A stretch of 31,320 nt of DNA, from the IMG/VR virus record IMGVR_UViG_2734482786_000007, positions 1 to 31,320 of that record. The stretch is one strand, 5' to 3'. Below, one piece after another: positions 6,061 to 29,363 of the stretch; position 1 is the stretch's first letter; the number at the start of each line of letters is the position of its first letter. This DNA is from a virus. Lineage: Duplodnaviria > Heunggongvirae > Uroviricota > Caudoviricetes. The notes beneath the pieces are model-generated. The model was given only the letters and a program-made list of their open reading frames with translations, did no database searches and had not been told where the DNA came from. The position numbers were made by a program, and so were the translations under genes.

Positions 6061-6094
6061 AGGGCAAGAGGGTGTTCTTGCCCTTTGTTTATTT
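6061..6094. terminator. Bidirectional intrinsic terminator between gene A and the convergent cargo gene
   Basis: Perfect 8-bp stem AGGGCAAG/CTTGCCCT (6061..6068 and 6077..6084) with an 8-nt loop, followed by TTGTTTATTT on the plus strand and preceded by an A/T run that supplies a U-tract for the minus-strand transcript. Confidence 0.6.
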
Positions 6095-8687
6095 AAGCGG
6101 CGATTTCAATGTTGCTTTTATATTTTAAGAGGGCGTTTTTGGGAACTGCTGGCCAGGCTGAGTATCTATAATAGTTCATATAATCTTTCTCTATCAGTGT
6201 TTTTAGCTGTTTGTTAGCTTGAACTTCATCACCAAGTAAAAAGAATGCACACATGGCCGTAGCCCCTTTTGAATTGTTATGTGCTAAAACTGAATTTATC
6301 TCATTCTTTTTAATGTCTTGCCCTTCTTTTTTCTTGGCAACTTCTCTATTGATTATTAAAACATCTTTTTCCCTGTAATCTTTAATTTTTTCAAGGTTTT
6401 CATTAGCGATTTTAATTGTTTCTTTATAGTTTCCTGCAAGAAGATTGGTATAAGATTTTCCTAAGATATAATCACTAAACCCGTAACCTTTTTCATAAGC
6501 TTCATCAAGAAGAACTATCGCTTTATCATAATCGCCGTTTAAAGATGCAATATCAGATTTTAATTTTAAAATGGTGATTTCTGATTTGTTTCTTGGCAGG
6601 CCATCAATAAACTCCTCTGCCAATTTGATGTTGTTTTTATCAATTAGTAATATGTCTACAATACTGTTTGTATGATTATTTTTCCACGGGCAGTTCATGG
6701 CTTCTTTGACTAATTCAATACCAGCCTTGATGTCCCTGTTGCAGCCTATCTCATATCGAGCTTTAAATATAATGAAAGGAGCAATTCTTGCAATGTCGCT
6801 CTCTTCTTCATATTTATCAATAAAGCCTTTCATCAGGTTGGGAGTGTTTTCATCGAAGTCTGTTTCAAATAAAGATAGATGCAGTTGTGTTAAATATTTT
6901 AATATGTTTCTTTTTTTATTTTTTGATGATGTTTTGTAAGCGTTGGATAATGTATCTATGCATAATAATGTATCTTCTTTCTTTTGCAATGCGCAGGTGA
7001 AATCAGTATATAACGACAAATATGTATCGTGAGTAGGGTTGACCTCTTTTATTTTGTCAAGCAGTTCTTGTATTAATTTATTACAATCTTTCTTATCATG
7101 GCTTGATTGATGTTTTGTCTTTATTGCGTCATATTTTATTCTCCATGCAATATTATCCAGATCACTGCTTTGGAGTAAGCTTTTATCAATTAAATCATGT
7201 ATTTCATCAAAGGTTATTAATTCTTCATCATTATTTTCTAGATGTAGAATAGCAATTCTGCTTAAATGATTCTTAAGATTTATGCTATATGGGAATTTTT
7301 CAAGCAATCCCTTAAGGTAATGTATTTTTGCCTTTAGATCTGTGAATATGTTTGCCCTTGAAAGGGCGTAATTTATATTAAATTCATCAAGAGCTATAAG
7401 ATTATCACTAATTTCTAATGCTGACTTTGTGTCTTTTTGTTCTTCTTTTATTTCAATTAGCCTACGCAGATATTTAGACTTTATATTGTCACTATCAGCG
7501 TTATTGATTAATTCATTCAGTTTTGACTCTGCGTTTAAATAATTTTTATTTCTAATGAGGTTGTCAATGTATAACAAATTCTTAAAATCTTCTTCGGGGA
7601 TCTTTTGATCGTCTAAATCACTTTGGGATAGCTCGTTTATTAATGACGATATGTCATGTGTTAGAGTGTGTTTTTTTAATTTTGAGAGATCAGATTTGAT
7701 AATGCCATTTTTAGATAAGTTGTACTCATCTGTTATAAAGTTTTGGATCATCATCTCTCTTTTTGTGGATTTTTGATTCCCTCCAAAAGAGAGTGCGCAG
7801 CCTAATTCTAGGGCTAGTTCTGCCATCAATTCATCAAAACCTTCTATTTCTACCCAATAAACTTTATCTTGACCTAGAAGCCTAATAAGTTCTGGTGGGA
7901 TGGAGTCATTTTTTCTAACGCACCAGTATACTCCATTTCTTAGATAATCGTCCTGTTTTAATAAATGTTTTAAAACATCCATGATAGAGCTGTCATTGCC
8001 AGCATAACCAACAAAAATAATCCCGTATTCTTTAGTGAATTCAGTTAGTTTTTCACGAGTGTTACCTTCTAATGACTCGGTTTCTTTTAAAGAGCTTTTT
8101 ATGCTATCAAATAAATAATCACCATGTAATTTTATTATTTTTGGCCTTGAAGAAGTAATTGAGACGCCTTTAATTGATGAATCATGTGCACATAATAATG
8201 GTCTGTCAGAAGAAAATTGATAAAATGCTTCATTTATTAAATCGTCAAAATTTGTTGTGAAGACAGTATCAAAAAACTTTGATTCAAATAGTTCAACGAG
8301 ATAAGCATATCCAATTGAAGGTAATTTTTTGTCTACTTGAAGCTCAACAAATCTTCTGCGTTGAGATGGAAGATCAAATTTCTTTTCAAAAAGAGATGAG
8401 TATTCATTGTTTGGGTCGTACCAGACTGGATGGTTTTTGGATAGCCATTTTTTAGCTTCTTCGGCATCGACATATTCTTGATTGGATAGTCTTGTGTATA
8501 TCTCTTCTCTCCATTTCGCTACTAACTCTTGACCAGTTTTTATTCCAGATGTAACGGATGCGCCAGCACCAAGAAAAAGTGAATAGTTAGGTGATGTACC
8601 TGATTTGATTTTTATATAATCAGCTAAATCTTTAACGGTTCTTTTTTTGGCAACCAGTTGTTCCTTGGTAGTATCACGATCAGACAT
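6093..8687 (-). CDS. SIR2-like (DHS-like NAD-binding) domain protein with a long C-terminal helical/TPR-like domain, 864 aa; candidate single-gene anti-phage defence protein
   Basis: N-terminal about 300 aa carry the SIR2_2-type signature: glycine-rich loop FLGAGAS (G40-S44), TTNFDD (N146), KLHGDY (H188), FVGYAGND. The C-terminal about 560 aa are Lys/Asn/Asp/Glu-rich helical repeats (e.g. GDYDKAIVLLDEAYEKG). Strongly AT-rich against the flanking phage genes; own GGAGGG Shine-Dalgarno; sits where P2 carries tin/old. Confidence 0.8.
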   Translation of the reverse strand: MSDRDTTKEQLVAKKRTVKDLADYIKIKSGTSPNYSLFLGAGASVTSGIKTGQELVAKWREEIYTRLSNQEYVDAEEAKKWLSKNHPVWYDPNNEYSSLFEKKFDLPSQRRRFVELQVDKKLPSIGYAYLVELFESKFFDTVFTTNFDDLINEAFYQFSSDRPLLCAHDSSIKGVSITSSRPKIIKLHGDYLFDSIKSSLKETESLEGNTREKLTEFTKEYGIIFVGYAGNDSSIMDVLKHLLKQDDYLRNGVYWCVRKNDSIPPELIRLLGQDKVYWVEIEGFDELMAELALELGCALSFGGNQKSTKREMMIQNFITDEYNLSKNGIIKSDLSKLKKHTLTHDISSLINELSQSDLDDQKIPEEDFKNLLYIDNLIRNKNYLNAESKLNELINNADSDNIKSKYLRRLIEIKEEQKDTKSALEISDNLIALDEFNINYALSRANIFTDLKAKIHYLKGLLEKFPYSINLKNHLSRIAILHLENNDEELITFDEIHDLIDKSLLQSSDLDNIAWRIKYDAIKTKHQSSHDKKDCNKLIQELLDKIKEVNPTHDTYLSLYTDFTCALQKKEDTLLCIDTLSNAYKTSSKNKKRNILKYLTQLHLSLFETDFDENTPNLMKGFIDKYEEESDIARIAPFIIFKARYEIGCNRDIKAGIELVKEAMNCPWKNNHTNSIVDILLIDKNNIKLAEEFIDGLPRNKSEITILKLKSDIASLNGDYDKAIVLLDEAYEKGYGFSDYILGKSYTNLLAGNYKETIKIANENLEKIKDYREKDVLIINREVAKKKEGQDIKKNEINSVLAHNNSKGATAMCAFFLLGDEVQANKQLKTLIEKDYMNYYRYSAWPAVPKNALLKYKSNIEIAA

Positions 8688-19399: not shown

Positions 19400-20308
19400 A
19401 TGCCGATTATCGACCTGAACCAGCTACCCGCACCGGATGTGGTCGAGGAGCTGGACTTTGAAACCATTCTTGCCGAACGCAAGGCGACACTGATTTCCCT
19501 TTACCCGGAAGACCAGCAGGAGGCGGTCGCCCGTACCCTGACGCTGGAATCCGAGCCTCTCGTCAAACTGCTGGAGGAAAATGCTTATCGTGAGCTTATC
19601 TGGCGTCAGCGTGTGAATGAGGCCGCACGGGCGGTAATGCTGGCCTGTGCCGCCGGTAATGACCTTGATGTGATTGGTGCCAATTACAACACCACGCGCC
19701 TGACTATCACTCCGGCAGATGATTCGACCATCCCGCCGACACCGGCAGTGATGGAGTCTGACACCGATTATCGTCTGCGTATTCAGCAGGCTTTTGAGGG
19801 CTTAAGCGTCGCCGGGTCAGTGGGAGCTTATCAGTATCATGGTCGCAGTGCCGACGGGCGTGTCGCCGATATTTCTGTCACCAGTCCGTCTCCTGCCTGC
19901 GTCACCATCTCTGTGCTGTCACGTGAAAATAACGGTGTCGCATCCGAAGACCTGCTGGCCGTGGTGCGTAACGCCCTGAATGGCGAGGACGTCAGACCGG
20001 TGGCCGACCGCGTGACCGTGCAGTCTGCCGCCATTGTTGAATACCAGATAAACGCCACGCTTTACCTTTACCCTGGTCCCGAAAGCGAACCCATCCGCGC
20101 GGCCGCCGTGAAAAAACTGGAAGCATACATCACGGCACAGCACCGGCTGGGGCGCGACATCCGTCTGTCTGCCATTTATGCCGCCTTGCATGTGGAAGGT
20201 GTGCAGCGTGTCGAACTGGCTGCACCGCTGGCCGACATCGTGCTCAACAATACGCAGGCGTCTTTCTGTACCGAATACCGCGTCGTGACCGGAGGCTCGG
20301 ATGAGTGA
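19400..20308 (+). CDS. J: Baseplate protein J, 302 aa
   Basis: Size identical to P2 J; synteny. Confidence 0.88.
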   Translation: MPIIDLNQLPAPDVVEELDFETILAERKATLISLYPEDQQEAVARTLTLESEPLVKLLEENAYRELIWRQRVNEAARAVMLACAAGNDLDVIGANYNTTRLTITPADDSTIPPTPAVMESDTDYRLRIQQAFEGLSVAGSVGAYQYHGRSADGRVADISVTSPSPACVTISVLSRENNGVASEDLLAVVRNALNGEDVRPVADRVTVQSAAIVEYQINATLYLYPGPESEPIRAAAVKKLEAYITAQHRLGRDIRLSAIYAALHVEGVQRVELAAPLADIVLNNTQASFCTEYRVVTGGSDE

Positions 20309-22974: not shown

Positions 22975-23502
22975 ATGCAGCATTTAAAAAATATTACGGC
23001 GGGTAATCCAAAAACGGTTGAACAATATCAATTGACAAAGGGTTTTGATGTTGTTTGGTTTTTTTCAGAAGATGGTAAGAACTGGTACGAAGAACAAAAG
23101 TATTTTACTGATGATACGATAAAAATAGCGTACGACAAAGATAATATTATCCGCTATGTGGAAAAGGATGTGACAGCTATCAGACCAGATGGATTAAGTG
23201 TTGTTGAAGTGCCGGATATTACTGCTAACCGACGGGCGGACATTTCAGGGAACTGGATGTTTAAGGACGGTACAGTGATTAAACGAATTTATACGGCAGA
23301 GGAATTGCAGCAGCAGGCAGAAAATCGGAAAGCCAGACTTCTAGCAGATGCTGAATCCGTTATTTTGCCGCTGGAGCGCGCTGTCAGGCTGAATATGGCA
23401 ACAGATGAGGAGCGTAGCCGACTGGAAGCATGGGAACGCTACAGTGTTCTGGTCAGCCGTGTGGATCCTGCAAATCCTGAATGGCCGGAAATGCCGCAAT
23501 AA
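22975..23502 (+). CDS. G: Tail fibre assembly chaperone (P2 GpG-like), 175 aa
   Basis: Size identical to P2 G; immediately downstream of H; C-terminal EWPEMP-type tail characteristic of tail fibre assembly proteins. Confidence 0.85.
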
Positions 23503-23891
23503 GTGATATGATCTCTTGTGTTAGTTAACATAGCTATAGTACAGAGTAAGGCCTAATCTGACAGTCCGCTCTGTGCTAGGAGCGGACATTATCAACATCA
23601 TGCTATGTTAATGTATAAAGTGAAGATAAATTGATATAATAAGGCCACCATGAATATTTCAGAACCTTGTCAAAAGGTTTGCACATACTCTAGTCTTGCA
23701 ATGTGTAGTTGATAGTTCCACTGAGGAGGTTCTTCGACATTCTTTATAAAAATGTACATTTCCATCAGTAATAAGAGGTAAAAGGGCTTTAATAGTTTTT
23801 TGTGGATGTTGTTTCTACTCATAAATTTTGAGATAAGTATTGAGTTGAGATAAAGTTAAACTCGTTAAATTCACTTTTAAAAGGATAAAGC

Positions 23892-24419
23892 ATGGACTGG
23901 AAAGATCTTGCATCAACCGCTGTGTATACAGGTATGACTGATGAAAATGAAAGCATATGGGAACGTGTTGATGGGGTTGACGTTGCCTTCATAGGTGCCT
24001 TTCTTACTGCGCACTTGAGCCTTGAAAAGTATATTACTGATTATCTTGGATTAAGATATCCTTCGTTAGCTTGGGGTGATGCAAAACTCACATTTTCACA
24101 AAAAATAGCTTTAATACAACATGAGCCTGCAAAATCCCCTTATGATGAAATATATTTAAGAATAAAAGACTTTAACAGCATAAGAAATAAAATCAGTCAT
24201 CAATTGAATTATCAGATTACGGATAAAGAAAAAAGTAAGTTTGTGGACTTCTACATGAAGATTACTAAAGCCAGTAAAACTAAACCAAATATTGACATTG
24301 ATAACATGGCAGATTTGTTGGATTTTTTCGTATCGATGACGAAATCCTATTTTGCTAGTGCTATTTCTTATTGTCACTATAATAAAAAGCTTGCAGGTAA
24401 AAGTAATAAAATTGATTAA
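23892..24419 (+). CDS. Cargo protein at the Z/fun position, 175 aa, with an HEPN-like R-N-x3-H motif; candidate abortive-infection/defence gene
   Basis: AT-rich ORF with its own AAGGA Shine-Dalgarno, isolated by about 390 bp and 300 bp of non-coding DNA between G and FI; motif I-R98-N-K-I-S-H103 (nt 24183..24200) fits the Rx4-6H HEPN signature. Confidence 0.6.
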   Translation: MDWKDLASTAVYTGMTDENESIWERVDGVDVAFIGAFLTAHLSLEKYITDYLGLRYPSLAWGDAKLTFSQKIALIQHEPAKSPYDEIYLRIKDFNSIRNKISHQLNYQITDKEKSKFVDFYMKITKASKTKPNIDIDNMADLLDFFVSMTKSYFASAISYCHYNKKLAGKSNKID

Positions 24420-24594
24420 TAAAACTGGACTTAGGGATAATTAATATATAGACGTTCTATCATTTTTAGAGTGTGCGGCAGCTCCATACATTCATGCGGA
24501 TGTCAGCACCTCGCTCAAAGCAGACAGTCAGATTTGATAGCGTTTGGACTATGTAAATAGTCAGTTGGAAAATGAGTGAGTACAAATCAGGACA

Positions 24595-24622
24595 GGCGGG
24601 CGAATTGCCCGCCTTTTCTTTA
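24595..24622 (+). terminator. Intrinsic terminator upstream of the FI late operon
   Basis: GC-rich 7-bp stem GGCGGGC/GCCCGCC with loop GAATT, followed by TTTTCTTTAT. Confidence 0.6.
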
Positions 24623-24624
24623 TC

Positions 24625-24645
24625 TGTTGTTTCATCCACTGACCA
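24625..24645 (+). promoter_or_regulatory. Candidate Ogr-dependent late promoter element upstream of FI (imperfect TGT-N12-ACA-like site)
   Basis: CTGTTGT-N12-CCA directly after the terminator and about 90 bp upstream of the FI start; shares the CTGTTGT core with the site upstream of O. Confidence 0.3.
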
Positions 24646-24717
24646 GCCAGGTCAAATAGCGCCTCATACTCTGCACAACAGAAAATAATTGCACCCATTA
24701 ACCACGGAGTTAAACGG

Positions 24718-25908
24718 ATGAGTGACTATCATCACGGCGTGCAGGTGCTGGAGATTAACGACGGCACCCGCGTCATTTCCACCGTATCCACTGCCATTGT
24801 CGGCATGGTCTGCACGGCCAGCGATGCGGATGCGGAAATCTTCCCCCTCAATAAACCGGTGCTGATTACCAATGTGCAGAGCGCAATTGCGAAGGCCGGT
24901 AAAAAAGGCACGCTGGCGGCATCGTTGCAGGCCATCGCCGACCAGTCAAAACCGGTCACCGTTGTCGTGCGCGTGGAAGACGGCACCGGCGACGACGAAG
25001 AAACGAAACTCGCGCAGACCGTTTCCAATATCATCGGCACCACCGACGAAAACGGTCAGTACACCGGACTGAAAGCCCTGCTGGCGGCGGAGTCGGTAAC
25101 CGGTGTTAAACCGCGTATTCTCGGTGTGCCGGGACTGGACACCAAAGAGGTGGCTGTTGCACTGGTATCCGTCTGTCAGAAGCTGCGCGCTTTCGGGTAT
25201 ATCAGCGCATGGGGCTGTAAGACCATTTCCGAGGTGAAAGCCTACCGCCAGAATTTCAGCCAGCGTGAGCTGATGGTCATCTGGCCGGATTTCCTCGCAT
25301 GGGATACGGTCACCAGCACCACCGCCACCGCGTATGCCACCGCCCGTGCGCTGGGTCTGCGTGCCAGAATCGACCAGGAGCAGGGCTGGCATAAAACGCT
25401 GTCCAATGTCGGGGTGAACGGTGTTACCGGCATCAGCGCATCTGTATTCTGGGATTTGCAGGAGTCCGGCACCGATGCTGACCTGCTTAACGAGTCAGGC
25501 GTCACTACGCTGATTCGCCGTGACGGTTTCCGCTTCTGGGGTAACCGTACCTGCTCTGATGATCCGCTGTTCCTCTTTGAAAACTACACCCGCACCGCGC
25601 AGGTGCTGGCCGACACGATGGCTGAGGCGCACATGTGGGCGGTGGACAAGCCCATCACCGCAACGCTGATTCGCGACATCGTTGACGGCATCAATGCCAA
25701 ATTCCGTGAGCTGAAAACAAACGGCTATATCGTGGATGCGACCTGCTGGTTCAGCGAAGAATCCAACGATGCGGAAACCCTTAAGGCCGGAAAACTGTAT
25801 ATCGACTACGACTATACCCCGGTGCCTCCTCTTGAAAACCTGACCCTGCGCCAGCGTATTACCGATAATTATCTGGCAAATCTGGTCACCTCGGTTAACA
25901 GCAATTAA
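24718..25908 (+). CDS. FI: Contractile tail sheath protein (P2 GpFI-like), 396 aa
   Basis: Size identical to P2 FI; GGAG Shine-Dalgarno; followed by the tail tube gene. Confidence 0.9.
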   Translation: MSDYHHGVQVLEINDGTRVISTVSTAIVGMVCTASDADAEIFPLNKPVLITNVQSAIAKAGKKGTLAASLQAIADQSKPVTVVVRVEDGTGDDEETKLAQTVSNIIGTTDENGQYTGLKALLAAESVTGVKPRILGVPGLDTKEVAVALVSVCQKLRAFGYISAWGCKTISEVKAYRQNFSQRELMVIWPDFLAWDTVTSTTATAYATARALGLRARIDQEQGWHKTLSNVGVNGVTGISASVFWDLQESGTDADLLNESGVTTLIRRDGFRFWGNRTCSDDPLFLFENYTRTAQVLADTMAEAHMWAVDKPITATLIRDIVDGINAKFRELKTNGYIVDATCWFSEESNDAETLKAGKLYIDYDYTPVPPLENLTLRQRITDNYLANLVTSVNSN

Positions 25909-25920
25909 GGAGCCTGACCG

Positions 25921-26439
25921 ATGGCAATGCCGCGCAAACTCAAGTTAATGAACGTCTTTCTGAACGGCTACAGCTATCAGGGCGTTGCAAAGTCCGTCAC
26001 GCTGCCAAAACTGACCCGTAAGCTCGAAAACTATCGCGGTGCGGGGATGAACGGCAGCGCACCGGTAGACCTCGGTCTTGATGACGATGCGCTGTCAATG
26101 GAGTGGTCGCTCGGTGGCTTCCCGGATTCGGTTATCTGGGAGCTTTACGCCGCAACCGGTGTGGATGCTGTGCCGATTCGTTTTGCAGGCTCTTACCAGC
26201 GTGACGATACCGGCGAAACGGTGGCCGTCGAAGTGGTCATGCGTGGACGTCAGAAAGAAATCGACACCGGCGAGGGTAAACAGGGAGAAGACACTGAGTC
26301 GAAAATCTCCGTGGTCTGCACCTATTTCCGGCTGACGATGGACGGTAAGGAGCTGGTCGAAATCGACACCATCAACATGATTGAGAAGGTGAACGGCGTC
26401 GACCGGCTGGAGCAACACCGCCGCAATATCGGCCTGTGA
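25921..26439 (+). CDS. FII: Tail tube protein (P2 GpFII-like), 172 aa
   Basis: Size identical to P2 FII; AGGAG Shine-Dalgarno 7 nt upstream. Confidence 0.9.
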   Translation: MAMPRKLKLMNVFLNGYSYQGVAKSVTLPKLTRKLENYRGAGMNGSAPVDLGLDDDALSMEWSLGGFPDSVIWELYAATGVDAVPIRFAGSYQRDDTGETVAVEVVMRGRQKEIDTGEGKQGEDTESKISVVCTYFRLTMDGKELVEIDTINMIEKVNGVDRLEQHRRNIGL

Positions 26440-26495
26440 TTTTCATCCGGTCAGCCAGGCTGACCGGTTAACCCTGATTCAGAAGTGAGAAAACC

Positions 26496-26771
26496 ATGAA
26501 CAAAGAAAATGTGATTACCCTGGACAATCCGGTCAAGCGTGGTGAGCAGGTCATCGAACAGGTCACGCTGATGAAACCCAATGCCGGGACGCTGCGCGGT
26601 GTCAGTCTGGCAGCGGTCGCGAACTCCGAAGTCGATGCACTGATTAAGGTGCTGCCGCGCATGACGGCACCGATGCTGACCGAGCAGGAAGTCGCCGCGC
26701 TGGAACTGCCTGACCTTGTGGCGCTGGCCGGTAAGGTGGTCGGTTTTTTGTCGCCGAACTCGGTGCAGTGA
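26496..26771 (+). CDS. E: Tail assembly chaperone E (91 aa)
   Basis: Size identical to P2 E; lies between the tail tube and tape-measure genes, the conserved position of the frameshifted chaperone pair. Confidence 0.85.
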   Translation: MNKENVITLDNPVKRGEQVIEQVTLMKPNAGTLRGVSLAAVANSEVDALIKVLPRMTAPMLTEQEVAALELPDLVALAGKVVGFLSPNSVQ

Positions 26772-26923
26772 CGTTTCCGAAAAATCTGTCGGTCGATGAC
26801 CTGATGGCGGATGTGGCAGTGATATTTCACTGGCCGCCATCAGAACTGTATCCCATGAGCCTGACCGAACTCATCACATGGCGCGAAAAGGCGCTCCGGC
26901 GAAGCGGAAACACGAATGAGTGA
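26496..26923 (+). CDS. E+E': E+E' extended tail assembly chaperone made by programmed -1 ribosomal frameshift at T TTT TTG (26744..26750); predicted 142 aa
   Basis: Canonical X XXY YYZ slippery heptamer in the E frame; the -1 frame stays open for 57 further codons to a TGA at 26921..26923, overlapping the T start. Product length equals P2 E+E' (142 aa). Confidence 0.75.
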
Positions 26924-29363
26924 CAATGTAAAATTACAGGTATTGCTCAGGGCTGTTGACCAGGCATCCCGCCCGTTTAAATCCATCCGCACAGCGAGCA
27001 AATCGCTGTCGGGGGATATCCGGGAAACACAAAAATCACTGCGCGAGCTGAACGGTCAGGCATCCCGTATTGAGGGATTCCGCAAGACCAGTGCACAGCT
27101 CGCCGTGACTGGTCATGCACTTGAAAAGGCTCGGCAGGAAGCCGAAGCCCTTGCCACACAGTTTAAAAACACCGAACGTCCGACCCGTGCTCAGGCGAAA
27201 GTGCTGGAATCCGCAAAGCGTACGGCGGAGGACTTACAGGCGAAATATAACCGCCTGACGGATTCCGTTAAACGCCAGCAGCGGGAACTGGCCGCTGTGG
27301 GAATTAATACCCGCAATCTTGCACATGATGAGCAGGGACTGAAAAACCGTATCAGTGAAACCACCGCACAGCTTAACCGTCAGCGCGACGCGCTGGCGCG
27401 TGTCAGTGCGCAACAGGCAAAACTTAACGCAGTAAAACAGCGTTATCAGTCCGGAAAGGAACTGGCCGGAAATATGGCCTCAGTGGGCGCTGCCGGTGTG
27501 GGGATTGCGGCGGCGGGAACGATGGCCGGTGTTAAGCTACTGATGCCCGGTTATGAGTTTGCGCAGAAAAACTCAGAATTGCAGGCCGTGCTAGGTGTGG
27601 CAAAAGACTCCGCCGAAATGGCCGCACTCCGCAAGCAGGCGCGCCAGCTCGGTGACAATACTGCCGCCTCGGCGGATGATGCAGCCGGTGCACAGATTAT
27701 CATTGCGAAAGCCGGTGGGGATGTTGATGCCATTCAGGCGGCAACGCCGGTCACGCTGAATATGGCACTGGCGAACCGCCGCACGATGGAAGAAAACGCC
27801 GCCCTGCTGATGGGGATGAAATCCGCCTTTCAGCTTTCAAACGATAAGGTCGCTCATATCGGGGATGTTCTCTCCATGACGATGAACAAAACCGCCGCCG
27901 ATTTTGACGGCATGAGCGATGCGCTGACCTATGCCGCACCAGTGGCAAATAATGCCGGTGTCAGCATTGAAGAAACCGCCGCAATGGTCGGGGCGCTGCA
28001 TGATGCAAAAATCACAGGCTCAATGGCGGGGACGGGAAGCCGTGCCGTGTTAAGTCGCCTGCAGGCACCAACGGGAAAAGCATGGGATGCACTCAAAGAG
28101 CTTGGCGTGAAAACCTCAGACAGTAAAGGGAATACCCGACCAGTATTTACCATTCTGAAAGAAATGCAGGCCAGTTTTGAGAAAAACCGGCTCGGTACTG
28201 CCCAGCAGGCTGAATACATGAAAACCATTTTCGGGGAGGAGGCCAGCTCAGCCGCCGCCGTCCTGATGACTGCCGCCTCAACCGGAAAGCTGGACAAACT
28301 GACCGCGGCGTTTAAAGCCTCAGACGGGAAGACCGCAGAGCTGGTAAATATCATGCAGGACAATCTCGGCGGTGACTTTAAGGAGTTTCAGTCCGCTTAT
28401 GAGGCGGTGGGGACTGACCTGTTTGACCAGCAGGAAGGCGCACTGCGTAAGCTCATGCAGACGGCCACAAAGTATGTGTTAAAACTCGACGGCTGGATAC
28501 AGAAAAACAAATCACTGGCGTCAACCATTGGTCTCATTGCCGGTGGCGCACTGGCGCTGACTGGCATCATCGGTGCAATTGGTCTTGTAGCCTGGCCGGT
28601 TATCACCGGCATCAATGCCATCATCGCGGCAGCAGGCGCAATGGGGGCAATCTTCACGACGGTTGGCAGTGCTGTTATGACGGCCATCGGGGCGATTAGC
28701 TGGCCGGTTGTGGCCGTGGTGGCTGCAATTGTCGCCGGGGCGTTGCTTATCCGTAAATACTGGGAGCCTGTCAGCGCATTCTTTGGCGGTGTGGTTGAAG
28801 GGCTGAAAGCAGCATTTGCGCCGGTGGGGGAACTGTTCACGCCACTTAAGCCGGTATTTGACTGGCTGGGTGAAAAGTTACAGGCTGCGTGGCAGTGGTT
28901 TAAAAACCTGATTGCACCGGTCAAAGCCACCCAGGACACCCTGAACCGTTGCCGTGACACGGGCGTCATGTTCGGGCAGGCACTGGCTGACGCGCTGATG
29001 CTGCCGCTTAATGCGTTCAACAAATTACGCAGCGGCATTGACTGGGTACTGGAAAAGCTCGGGGTCATCAACAAAGAGTCAGACACACTTGACCAGACCG
29101 CCGCCAGAACTCATGCCGCCACGTATGGCACCGGTGGTTATATTCCGGCGACCAGCTCTTATGCAGGCTATCAGGCTTATCAGCCGGTCACGGCACCGGC
29201 TGGCCGCTCTTATGTGGACCAGAGTAAAAACGAATATCACATCAGCCTGACGGGTGGTACTGCACCGGGGACACAGCTTGACCGCCAGTTACAGGATGCG
29301 CTCGAAAAATACGAGCGGGATAAACGTGCGCGCGCCCGTGCCAGCATGATGCATGACGGTTAA
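26916..29363 (+). CDS. T: Tail tape-measure protein (P2 GpT-like), 815 aa
   Basis: Size identical to P2 T; long coiled-coil N-terminal half and Gly/Ala-rich hydrophobic central segment typical of tape-measure proteins. Confidence 0.9.
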   Translation: MSDNVKLQVLLRAVDQASRPFKSIRTASKSLSGDIRETQKSLRELNGQASRIEGFRKTSAQLAVTGHALEKARQEAEALATQFKNTERPTRAQAKVLESAKRTAEDLQAKYNRLTDSVKRQQRELAAVGINTRNLAHDEQGLKNRISETTAQLNRQRDALARVSAQQAKLNAVKQRYQSGKELAGNMASVGAAGVGIAAAGTMAGVKLLMPGYEFAQKNSELQAVLGVAKDSAEMAALRKQARQLGDNTAASADDAAGAQIIIAKAGGDVDAIQAATPVTLNMALANRRTMEENAALLMGMKSAFQLSNDKVAHIGDVLSMTMNKTAADFDGMSDALTYAAPVANNAGVSIEETAAMVGALHDAKITGSMAGTGSRAVLSRLQAPTGKAWDALKELGVKTSDSKGNTRPVFTILKEMQASFEKNRLGTAQQAEYMKTIFGEEASSAAAVLMTAASTGKLDKLTAAFKASDGKTAELVNIMQDNLGGDFKEFQSAYEAVGTDLFDQQEGALRKLMQTATKYVLKLDGWIQKNKSLASTIGLIAGGALALTGIIGAIGLVAWPVITGINAIIAAAGAMGAIFTTVGSAVMTAIGAISWPVVAVVAAIVAGALLIRKYWEPVSAFFGGVVEGLKAAFAPVGELFTPLKPVFDWLGEKLQAAWQWFKNLIAPVKATQDTLNRCRDTGVMFGQALADALMLPLNAFNKLRSGIDWVLEKLGVINKESDTLDQTAARTHAATYGTGGYIPATSSYAGYQAYQPVTAPAGRSYVDQSKNEYHISLTGGTAPGTQLDRQLQDALEKYERDKRARARASMMHDG

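Follow-up and report, generated by a model that had tools for sequence, protein, structure and literature searches.

An intact P2-type E/E+E' frameshift site in a prophage: anatomy, conservation and sequence context

In phage lambda, the tail assembly chaperone locus gives two products, G and GT. The tape-measure protein is coated by G, and the major tail protein is recruited by the T part of GT; both products are absent from the virion. The slippery motif of lambda is G_GGA_AAG. The lambda G/GT frameshift, together with its counterparts in long-tailed dsDNA phages, was reportedly described by Levin et al. in 1993 and by Xu, Hendrix and Duda in 2004. For the -1 frameshift that yields E and E+E' in phage P2, the primary experimental work is said to be that of Christie, Temple, Bartlett and Goodwin (J Bacteriol 184:6522, 2002).

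In P2, a -1 shift at TTTTTTG gives a 91-aa E and a 142-aa E+E' (PMC3091744). No 3' hairpin has been found in P2 or its relatives in Burkholderia (PMC3091744), and published descriptions of P2 give E' no RBS of its own and an E'/E overlap of 37 nt. The efficiency of the P2-type shift is 2-3 times that of lambda G/GT, where the G:GT ratio is ~30:1 (PMC5009743); P2 frameshifting is thus roughly 7-10%. The experimental facts on P2 (that the fusion is made, that it is essential, and that the shift reaches ~7-10%) are taken here second-hand, from later papers and from the P2 reference record NC_001895.

Anatomy of the site and identity with phage P2

The window (the whole stretch of DNA analysed, 31,320 nt) is a complete P2-type (Peduovirus) prophage with the integrated gene order int to ogr. 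The feature under study is the known P2 E/E+E' programmed -1 frameshift, present intact in this prophage, and it is ordinary. Features of the site and its surroundings are listed in Table 1.

Table 1. Features at and around the E/E+E' frameshift site (positions in the window)
Feature	Position	Strand	Basis
FI, tail sheath	24718-25908		Expected Pfam family
FII, tail tube gene, upstream neighbour	25921..26439	+	172-aa ORF; Pfam Phage_tube 2.3e-60
Gene E, 91 aa, tail assembly chaperone, 0-frame product	26496..26771	+	ORF; Pfam PF10109 Phage_TAC_7 2.6e-12
SD-like element AAGGUGGUC, candidate modulator	26733..26741	+	16S 3' tail duplex -13.8 kcal/mol
Slippery heptamer T_TTT_TTG, -1 shift site	26744..26750	+	Sequence; same as annotated P2 site
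E' segment, -1 frame, 57 codons + TGA, C-terminal extension of E only	26750..26923	+	Pfam PF06528
Predicted E+E' fusion, 142 aa	26496-26750 joined to 26750-26923	+	
Gene T, tape measure protein	26916..29363	+	815-aa ORF; Pfam PhageMin_Tail 3.1e-45
U and D, neighbours of the site			Expected Pfam families

The initial annotation placed a T TTT TTG heptamer at 26744-26750, seven codons before the E stop, with a -1 frame open from 26750 to a TGA at 26921..26923 that overlaps the start of T. Direct reading of the sequence bears this out (26740-26759 is tcggTTTTTTGtcgccgaac); the stop is the seventh codon after the heptamer, and all of these coordinates are right. In the E frame the heptamer is read as GG(T TTT TTG), encoding Gly83 Phe84 Leu85, and has the phase X_XXY_YYZ. 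The TTG is separated from the E stop, a TGA at 26769-26771, by six sense codons (S P N S V Q). The -1 frame is open as early as 26735, following a TAA at 26732-26734, and E' overlaps E by 37 nt. From 26750 (GTC GCC GAA...) this frame runs for 57 codons, VAELGAVTFPKNLSVDDLMADVAVIFHWPPSELYPMSLTELITWREKALRRSGNTNE, and then reaches its TGA. The E' stop and the T start overlap by 8 nt (ATGAGTGA), the ATG of T being at 26916.

Both parts of the predicted product belong to described protein families. The match of E to Phage_TAC_7 scores 47 bits (cut-off 25) and covers the profile from position 2 to position 78 of 79. The Phage_P2_GpE profile (PF06528) is matched over its full length by residues 104-139 of the modelled fusion, with a score of 76.3 bits (cut-off 23; E = 1.2e-21). 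NCBIfam models gave no match to E or to E+E', and a sequence search of the PDB, with E <= 1 as the limit, yielded no relative of solved structure.

Around the site, 601 bases match 74 deposited phage records at 98-99% identity. Over the 451 nt from 26480 to 26930, identity to phage P2 (NC_001895) is 99%; no difference falls in the heptamer or in the 70 nt preceding it, and almost the whole of E' is unchanged. E differs from P2 E (19430-19705 in the P2 record) in one residue, N29 in place of S29, and by eight synonymous changes. E' has one synonymous change, and its stop is TGA instead of the TAA of P2. The latter substitution also alters codon 3 of T, which is Asn in P2 and Asp here. In NC_001895, E+E' is a joined CDS which 'shares amino terminus with gpE; -1 frameshift; essential tail protein', and a misc_feature at the corresponding position is labelled 'site of -1 translational frameshift'. 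The assignment of the genes as P2 E, E' and T is supported by Pfam, by synteny and by the 99% identity to this record. The view that this is the conserved tail-chaperone frameshift generating E+E', as first proposed for the window, finds support in Pfam, synteny, the P2 record and the literature.

It had also been remarked that gene callers usually annotate only E and miss the extended product. This is correct: PGAP and most depositors leave E' out or draw it as an ORF of its own. No E' is annotated in MK907236 or ON239131. In KC618326 and in PGAP annotation E' is drawn as a separate small ORF, which in the PGAP version has 51 aa and begins at the GTG at 26768; every full-length E. coli record sampled carries the PGAP separate-CDS model with the GTG start. 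Among the records compared, E+E' is joined only in the curated P2 record. Of 5,426 complete E. coli genomes, 1,582 have the locus. For tail-chaperone frameshifts as a whole, the PRFect paper describes the same difficulty with annotation. The practical value of the site thus lies in annotation: a very common, essential phage protein is systematically mis-modelled. The gain for biology is small. The P2 E/E+E' frameshift, an established finding since 2002, is one of the standard examples of this conserved type of tail-chaperone frameshift.

Cargo genes are found at two of the positions used for cargo in P2. At the old/tin position, an island of 31-35% GC contains an 864-aa ORF (6093-8687, - strand). 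The N-terminal ~350 aa of this ORF match Pfam SIR2_2 (4.6e-15) and the PADLOC model for the SIR2 domain of Ago-associated proteins (2.2e-59); a further C-terminal ~500 aa extend beyond the SIR2 domain. The ORF probably represents an anti-phage defence of the SIR2 kind that the prophage carries as one gene. At the Z/fun position, an island of ~40% GC (about 23500-24700) sits between the tail-fibre assembly gene G and the sheath gene FI. It holds a 175-aa ORF (23892-24419, + strand), for which no Pfam or PADLOC match was obtained.

Conservation among relatives and competing explanations

One genome per bacterial species was scanned for the locus. This yielded 79 loci with relatives at 36-100% identity, found in Enterobacterales, Burkholderiales (Cupriavidus, Ralstonia), Sphingomonadales and others and covering three proteobacterial classes. 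Relative to E, 78 of the 79 have E' in the -1 frame. Within the stretch open in both frames, the in-phase heptamer is T_TTT_TTG in 68 loci (69 with the window) and T_TTT_TTA in nine. The window and 78 of the 79 related loci share an invariant T6 with G or A after it. The base preceding the run is always T, despite variation in the codon (GGT, AGT, AAT, GAT, TAT, CCT). The T6 run is kept even in genomes of 63-66% GC, where TTT makes up 9-30% of Phe codons and TTG and TTA together make up 3-12% of Leu codons. In an alignment of 51 sequences, T6 is the only run of consecutive invariant columns. Judged from these comparisons, the constraint on the heptamer acts at the nucleotide level.

Other parts of the locus vary within limits. 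The tail of E after the heptamer ranges from 5 to 34 codons, and E' keeps to 54-61 codons in 76 of 79 loci. A T start was found in 78 loci, and in 76 of these it overlaps the E' stop, mostly as ATGAGTRA; this arrangement is compatible with translational coupling of T to frameshifted ribosomes.

Two loci deserve separate mention. The locus of Enterobacter sp. EA-1 (L059; CP025776.1, 1690-1800) was considered as a counter-example and set aside: it has T5 and also a second, earlier frame break in E, and either a homopolymer error in the assembly or a decayed or decaying prophage probably accounts for it. The locus of E. coli KFu022 (NZ_CP091677.1, 1287-1913; L082) matches E-E' at 100% but belongs to a truncated prophage. 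Its sheath gene lacks the N-terminus and stands directly after a tail gene of the lysis-proximal cluster, which suggests an internal deletion.

The heptamer itself is common. The window contains 16 copies of TTTTTTG where 10.3 +/- 3.2 are expected; 5 of 100 shuffles have at least that many, and the enrichment is not significant. Since TTTTTTG is not over-represented, the presence of the heptamer alone is no evidence. What rises above chance is its context: the position of the stop, the Pfam domain in the extension and the invariance in relatives. Long ORFs on both strands contain 57 in-phase slippery heptamers, and the one at 26744-26750 is the sole example with a 0-frame stop within 10 codons and a long -1 extension. 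A reading in which the heptamer is a functionless chance occurrence, and the -1 ORF downstream a non-coding open frame, could draw on the lack of enrichment (16 copies against 10.3 expected). However, the -1 ORF carries a Pfam domain at 1.2e-21, the heptamer is invariant over 36-100% identity and across GC contents, and the locus is identical to the P2 site that was studied experimentally. The domain and the conservation have already effectively refuted chance occurrence, the probability of which is negligible. A second reading is the one embodied in the PGAP model, in which E' is a separate small gene with a start of its own (a 51-aa 'GpE family phage tail protein' from GTG 26768) and the heptamer is irrelevant. 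PGAP and some depositors annotate the locus in this way, and two start codons are available: the GTG at 26768, and the ATG for the Met of DDLMAD, where the Pfam match begins. However, only 3 of the 79 loci have GTG 26768, which owes its existence to the overlapping TGA stop of E. The Met of DDLMAD is the only widely shared in-frame start, and it is preceded by an SD-like sequence in one locus only. In nine loci there is no start codon at all before the conserved core, because Ile replaces this Met. The stretch of -1 peptide that links the heptamer to the Pfam core is itself conserved (VAE[FL]G.V.FP..LSVDD), with no start codon before it. Across the 79 loci, no conserved start codon or SD for E' was found. 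The start-codon, SD and peptide-conservation evidence makes independent initiation untenable as a general mechanism. It would also leave the invariance of T6 at synonymous sites unexplained, and the literature reports a fusion product and no RBS for E'. A separate E' gene is therefore extremely unlikely.

The fusion could instead be produced by RNA polymerase slipping on T6, so that a fraction of transcripts carries one extra U. The run is homopolymeric, and according to the literature some more distant P2-like phages carry T7G or T7C. Sequence alone cannot separate this route from ribosomal slippage, as both would give a G-F-F-V junction. Productive bacterial cases of transcriptional slippage, however, have been described for runs of 9 A or T, whereas the run here is 6 and is never longer across the 79 loci (it is T5 in L059). 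The exact X_XXY_YYZ phase also counts against slippage by the polymerase, as does the ribosomal shifting of a heptamer of the same class, U_UUU_UUA, in a purified E. coli system; the literature treats the site as translational. Transcriptional slippage is accordingly judged very unlikely. The remaining reading is by far the most probable: it is almost certain that this is a programmed -1 ribosomal frameshift site, that of the P2 tail operon (FI-FII-E-E'-T-U-D) in a P2-type prophage.

Stimulatory elements and frameshift efficiency

A stimulatory hairpin or pseudoknot downstream of the heptamer, which the initial annotation had pointed to as something to look for in 26751-26800, was not found by RNA folding. 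This matches the published statements on P2, and the interpretation as a frameshift site is not weakened. Shuffled sequences fold as well as 26751-26800, 26751-26830 and 26744-26810 do (z = 0.05, -0.48 and 0.45, respectively). RNAalifold applied to the aligned relatives gives -0.23 kcal/mol and two trivial pairs; there is no conserved 3' structure.

Individual helices were also considered. A 5-bp hairpin starting 2 nt after the heptamer is unsupported across relatives. A 10-bp hairpin within E' (26801-26810 with 26834-26843; CUGAUGGCGG / CCGCCAUCAG) lies 50 nt 3' of the slip site and stands out in a 120-nt fold (z = -2.07). It was rejected as a classical stimulator, being too distant and, at 84% paired in relatives, showing no real covariation. 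Pair counting for the two helices gives 72% and 84% of cells paired, and the variation is mostly at third codon positions and not compensatory. An upstream hairpin, ACCUU/AAGGU, appears in the fold of 26700-26800; by eye, its 5' arm is not conserved in relatives (e.g. GATATG).

The slippery sequence itself is a weak one. In the E. coli reporters of Sharma et al. 2014, UUUUUUG gave 0.118% frameshifting with no stimulator, 0.247% with the IS911 stimulators and 0.765% with the IS3 pseudoknot. The corresponding values for UUUUUUA were 0.094%, 0.266% and 1.27%. Both are among the weakest U-rich motifs (Sharma et al. 2014). The reporter efficiency of UUUUUUG is roughly 100-fold below the value reported for P2. 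Given this weakness and the lack of a conserved 3' stimulator, the heptamer alone does not explain the efficiency of P2.

One candidate contributor lies on the 5' side of the heptamer. In an anti-SD profile, computed as duplex energy with the 16S 3' tail, the lowest value anywhere from -200 to +120 falls in the 10-nt window that begins 11 nt upstream of the heptamer; its mean is -9.85 kcal/mol, and the background is -2.45 +/- 1.53. An SD-like AGGUG is located 6 nt upstream of the heptamer, and AAGGUGGUC counts as an SD by the published operational definition. A spacing of 6 nt is the lower edge of the experimentally supported range of 6-17 nt used by Sharma et al.

Synonymous sites in this region were counted in 37 non-redundant Enterobacterales loci. 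The Lys codon at -4 is AAG in 31 and AAA in two, where the background frequency of AAG is 33%; control conserved Lys codons in the same alignment show 7 G to 23 A and 14 G to 17 A. The Val codon at -3 is GTG in 36 and GTT in one (entropy 0.18 bits; background GTG 38%), and six control conserved Val codons in the same alignment have entropies of 1.0-1.8 bits. On these codon counts, the SD-like element is more than a by-product of the K-V-V-G residues. AGGTG at a spacer of 6 is present in 34 of 37 Enterobacterales loci, compared with 15% of control positions.

The picture is different in more distant loci, where a qualifying SD occurs in only 4 of 14 (again compared with 15% of control positions). 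The element is a clade-level feature and not part of the core signal, since so few of the distant loci have it; a role as a universal part of the signal was rejected on its absence from 10 of 14. The conserved SD-like AGGUG may nevertheless be a candidate contributor to frameshifting. Its spacing is short, which leaves even the direction of any effect uncertain.

The A-site codon of the heptamer is always UUG or UUA. Korniy et al. 2019 studied U_UUU_UUA in a purified E. coli system and found slippage to alternate between a route on the P-site tRNA alone, taken under limitation of tRNA-Leu(NAA), the reader of UUA and UUG, and a route on two tRNAs during translocation. One tentative explanation of the efficiency gap, which we regard as possible and somewhat doubtful, is that the P2-type site reaches roughly 7-10% without a 3' structure through a synonymously selected AGGUG(G/A)UY together with a 'hungry codon' P-site slip at the UUR Leu codon. 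Neither component is obviously discussed in the literature examined. If the explanation were true, P2-like phages would be a natural model of structure-independent -1 frameshifting tuned by tRNA and rRNA. The ~100-fold gap in efficiency and the conserved upstream SD-like element together make a small, directly testable question.

Proposed mechanism and comparison with known systems

Under programmed ribosomal frameshifting, most ribosomes translating E would pass T_TTT_TTG and stop six codons on, producing the 91-aa chaperone gpE. A minority would slip back one nucleotide on the U6 run. We infer two possible routes for the slip: tRNA-Phe and tRNA-Leu might move together during translocation, or the P-site tRNA-Phe might move alone while UUG awaits the minor tRNA-Leu. 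Slipped ribosomes would read 57 more codons in the -1 frame and make the 142-aa gpE+E', ending within the start of T. If lambda G/GT is taken as a guide, the E part common to both products would be expected to coat the tape-measure protein. The E' part, supplied at a fixed low ratio, would be expected to recruit the tail tube, and neither gpE nor gpE+E' should stay in the virion.

Frameshift sites of several kinds share elements with this one. E. coli dnaX combines a 5' SD-like stimulator, a heptamer and a 3' hairpin; what it has in common with the site in the window and in Enterobacterales is an internal SD-like sequence upstream of the heptamer, here a candidate modulator. In contrast to dnaX, there is no 3' hairpin here, and the SD-like element is missing from most distant relatives (10 of 14). 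Neither folding nor alignment revealed a conserved hairpin or pseudoknot of the dnaX or IS type at 4-10 nt past the motif.

The U_UUU_UUA of HIV-1 gag-pol belongs to the same heptamer class, and nine of the related loci carry exactly T_TTT_TTA. The A-site codon is likewise a UUR Leu codon read by a minor tRNA. HIV-1, however, depends on a 3' stem-loop, whereas no conserved 3' structure is present here, and the origins and products of the two systems are unrelated.

Lambda G/GT is closer in organisation. There, too, a pair of overlapping ORFs separates the major tail (tube) gene from the tape-measure gene; ribosomes that slip by -1 towards the end of the first one make a minor fusion at a fixed ratio, and no 3' structure is obligatory. 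There is no sequence similarity to lambda G/T according to the literature, and only PF10109 and PF06528 were matched here. The P2-type heptamer is U_UUU_UUG, and the P2-type tail is contractile and not a siphovirus tail.

The closest system is P2 E/E+E' itself (NC_001895). The element described here differs from P2 in being an integrated prophage with different cargo genes. It has the same genes, operon order and heptamer, the same product sizes of 91 and 142 aa, and the same 37-nt E'/E and 8-nt E'/T overlaps.
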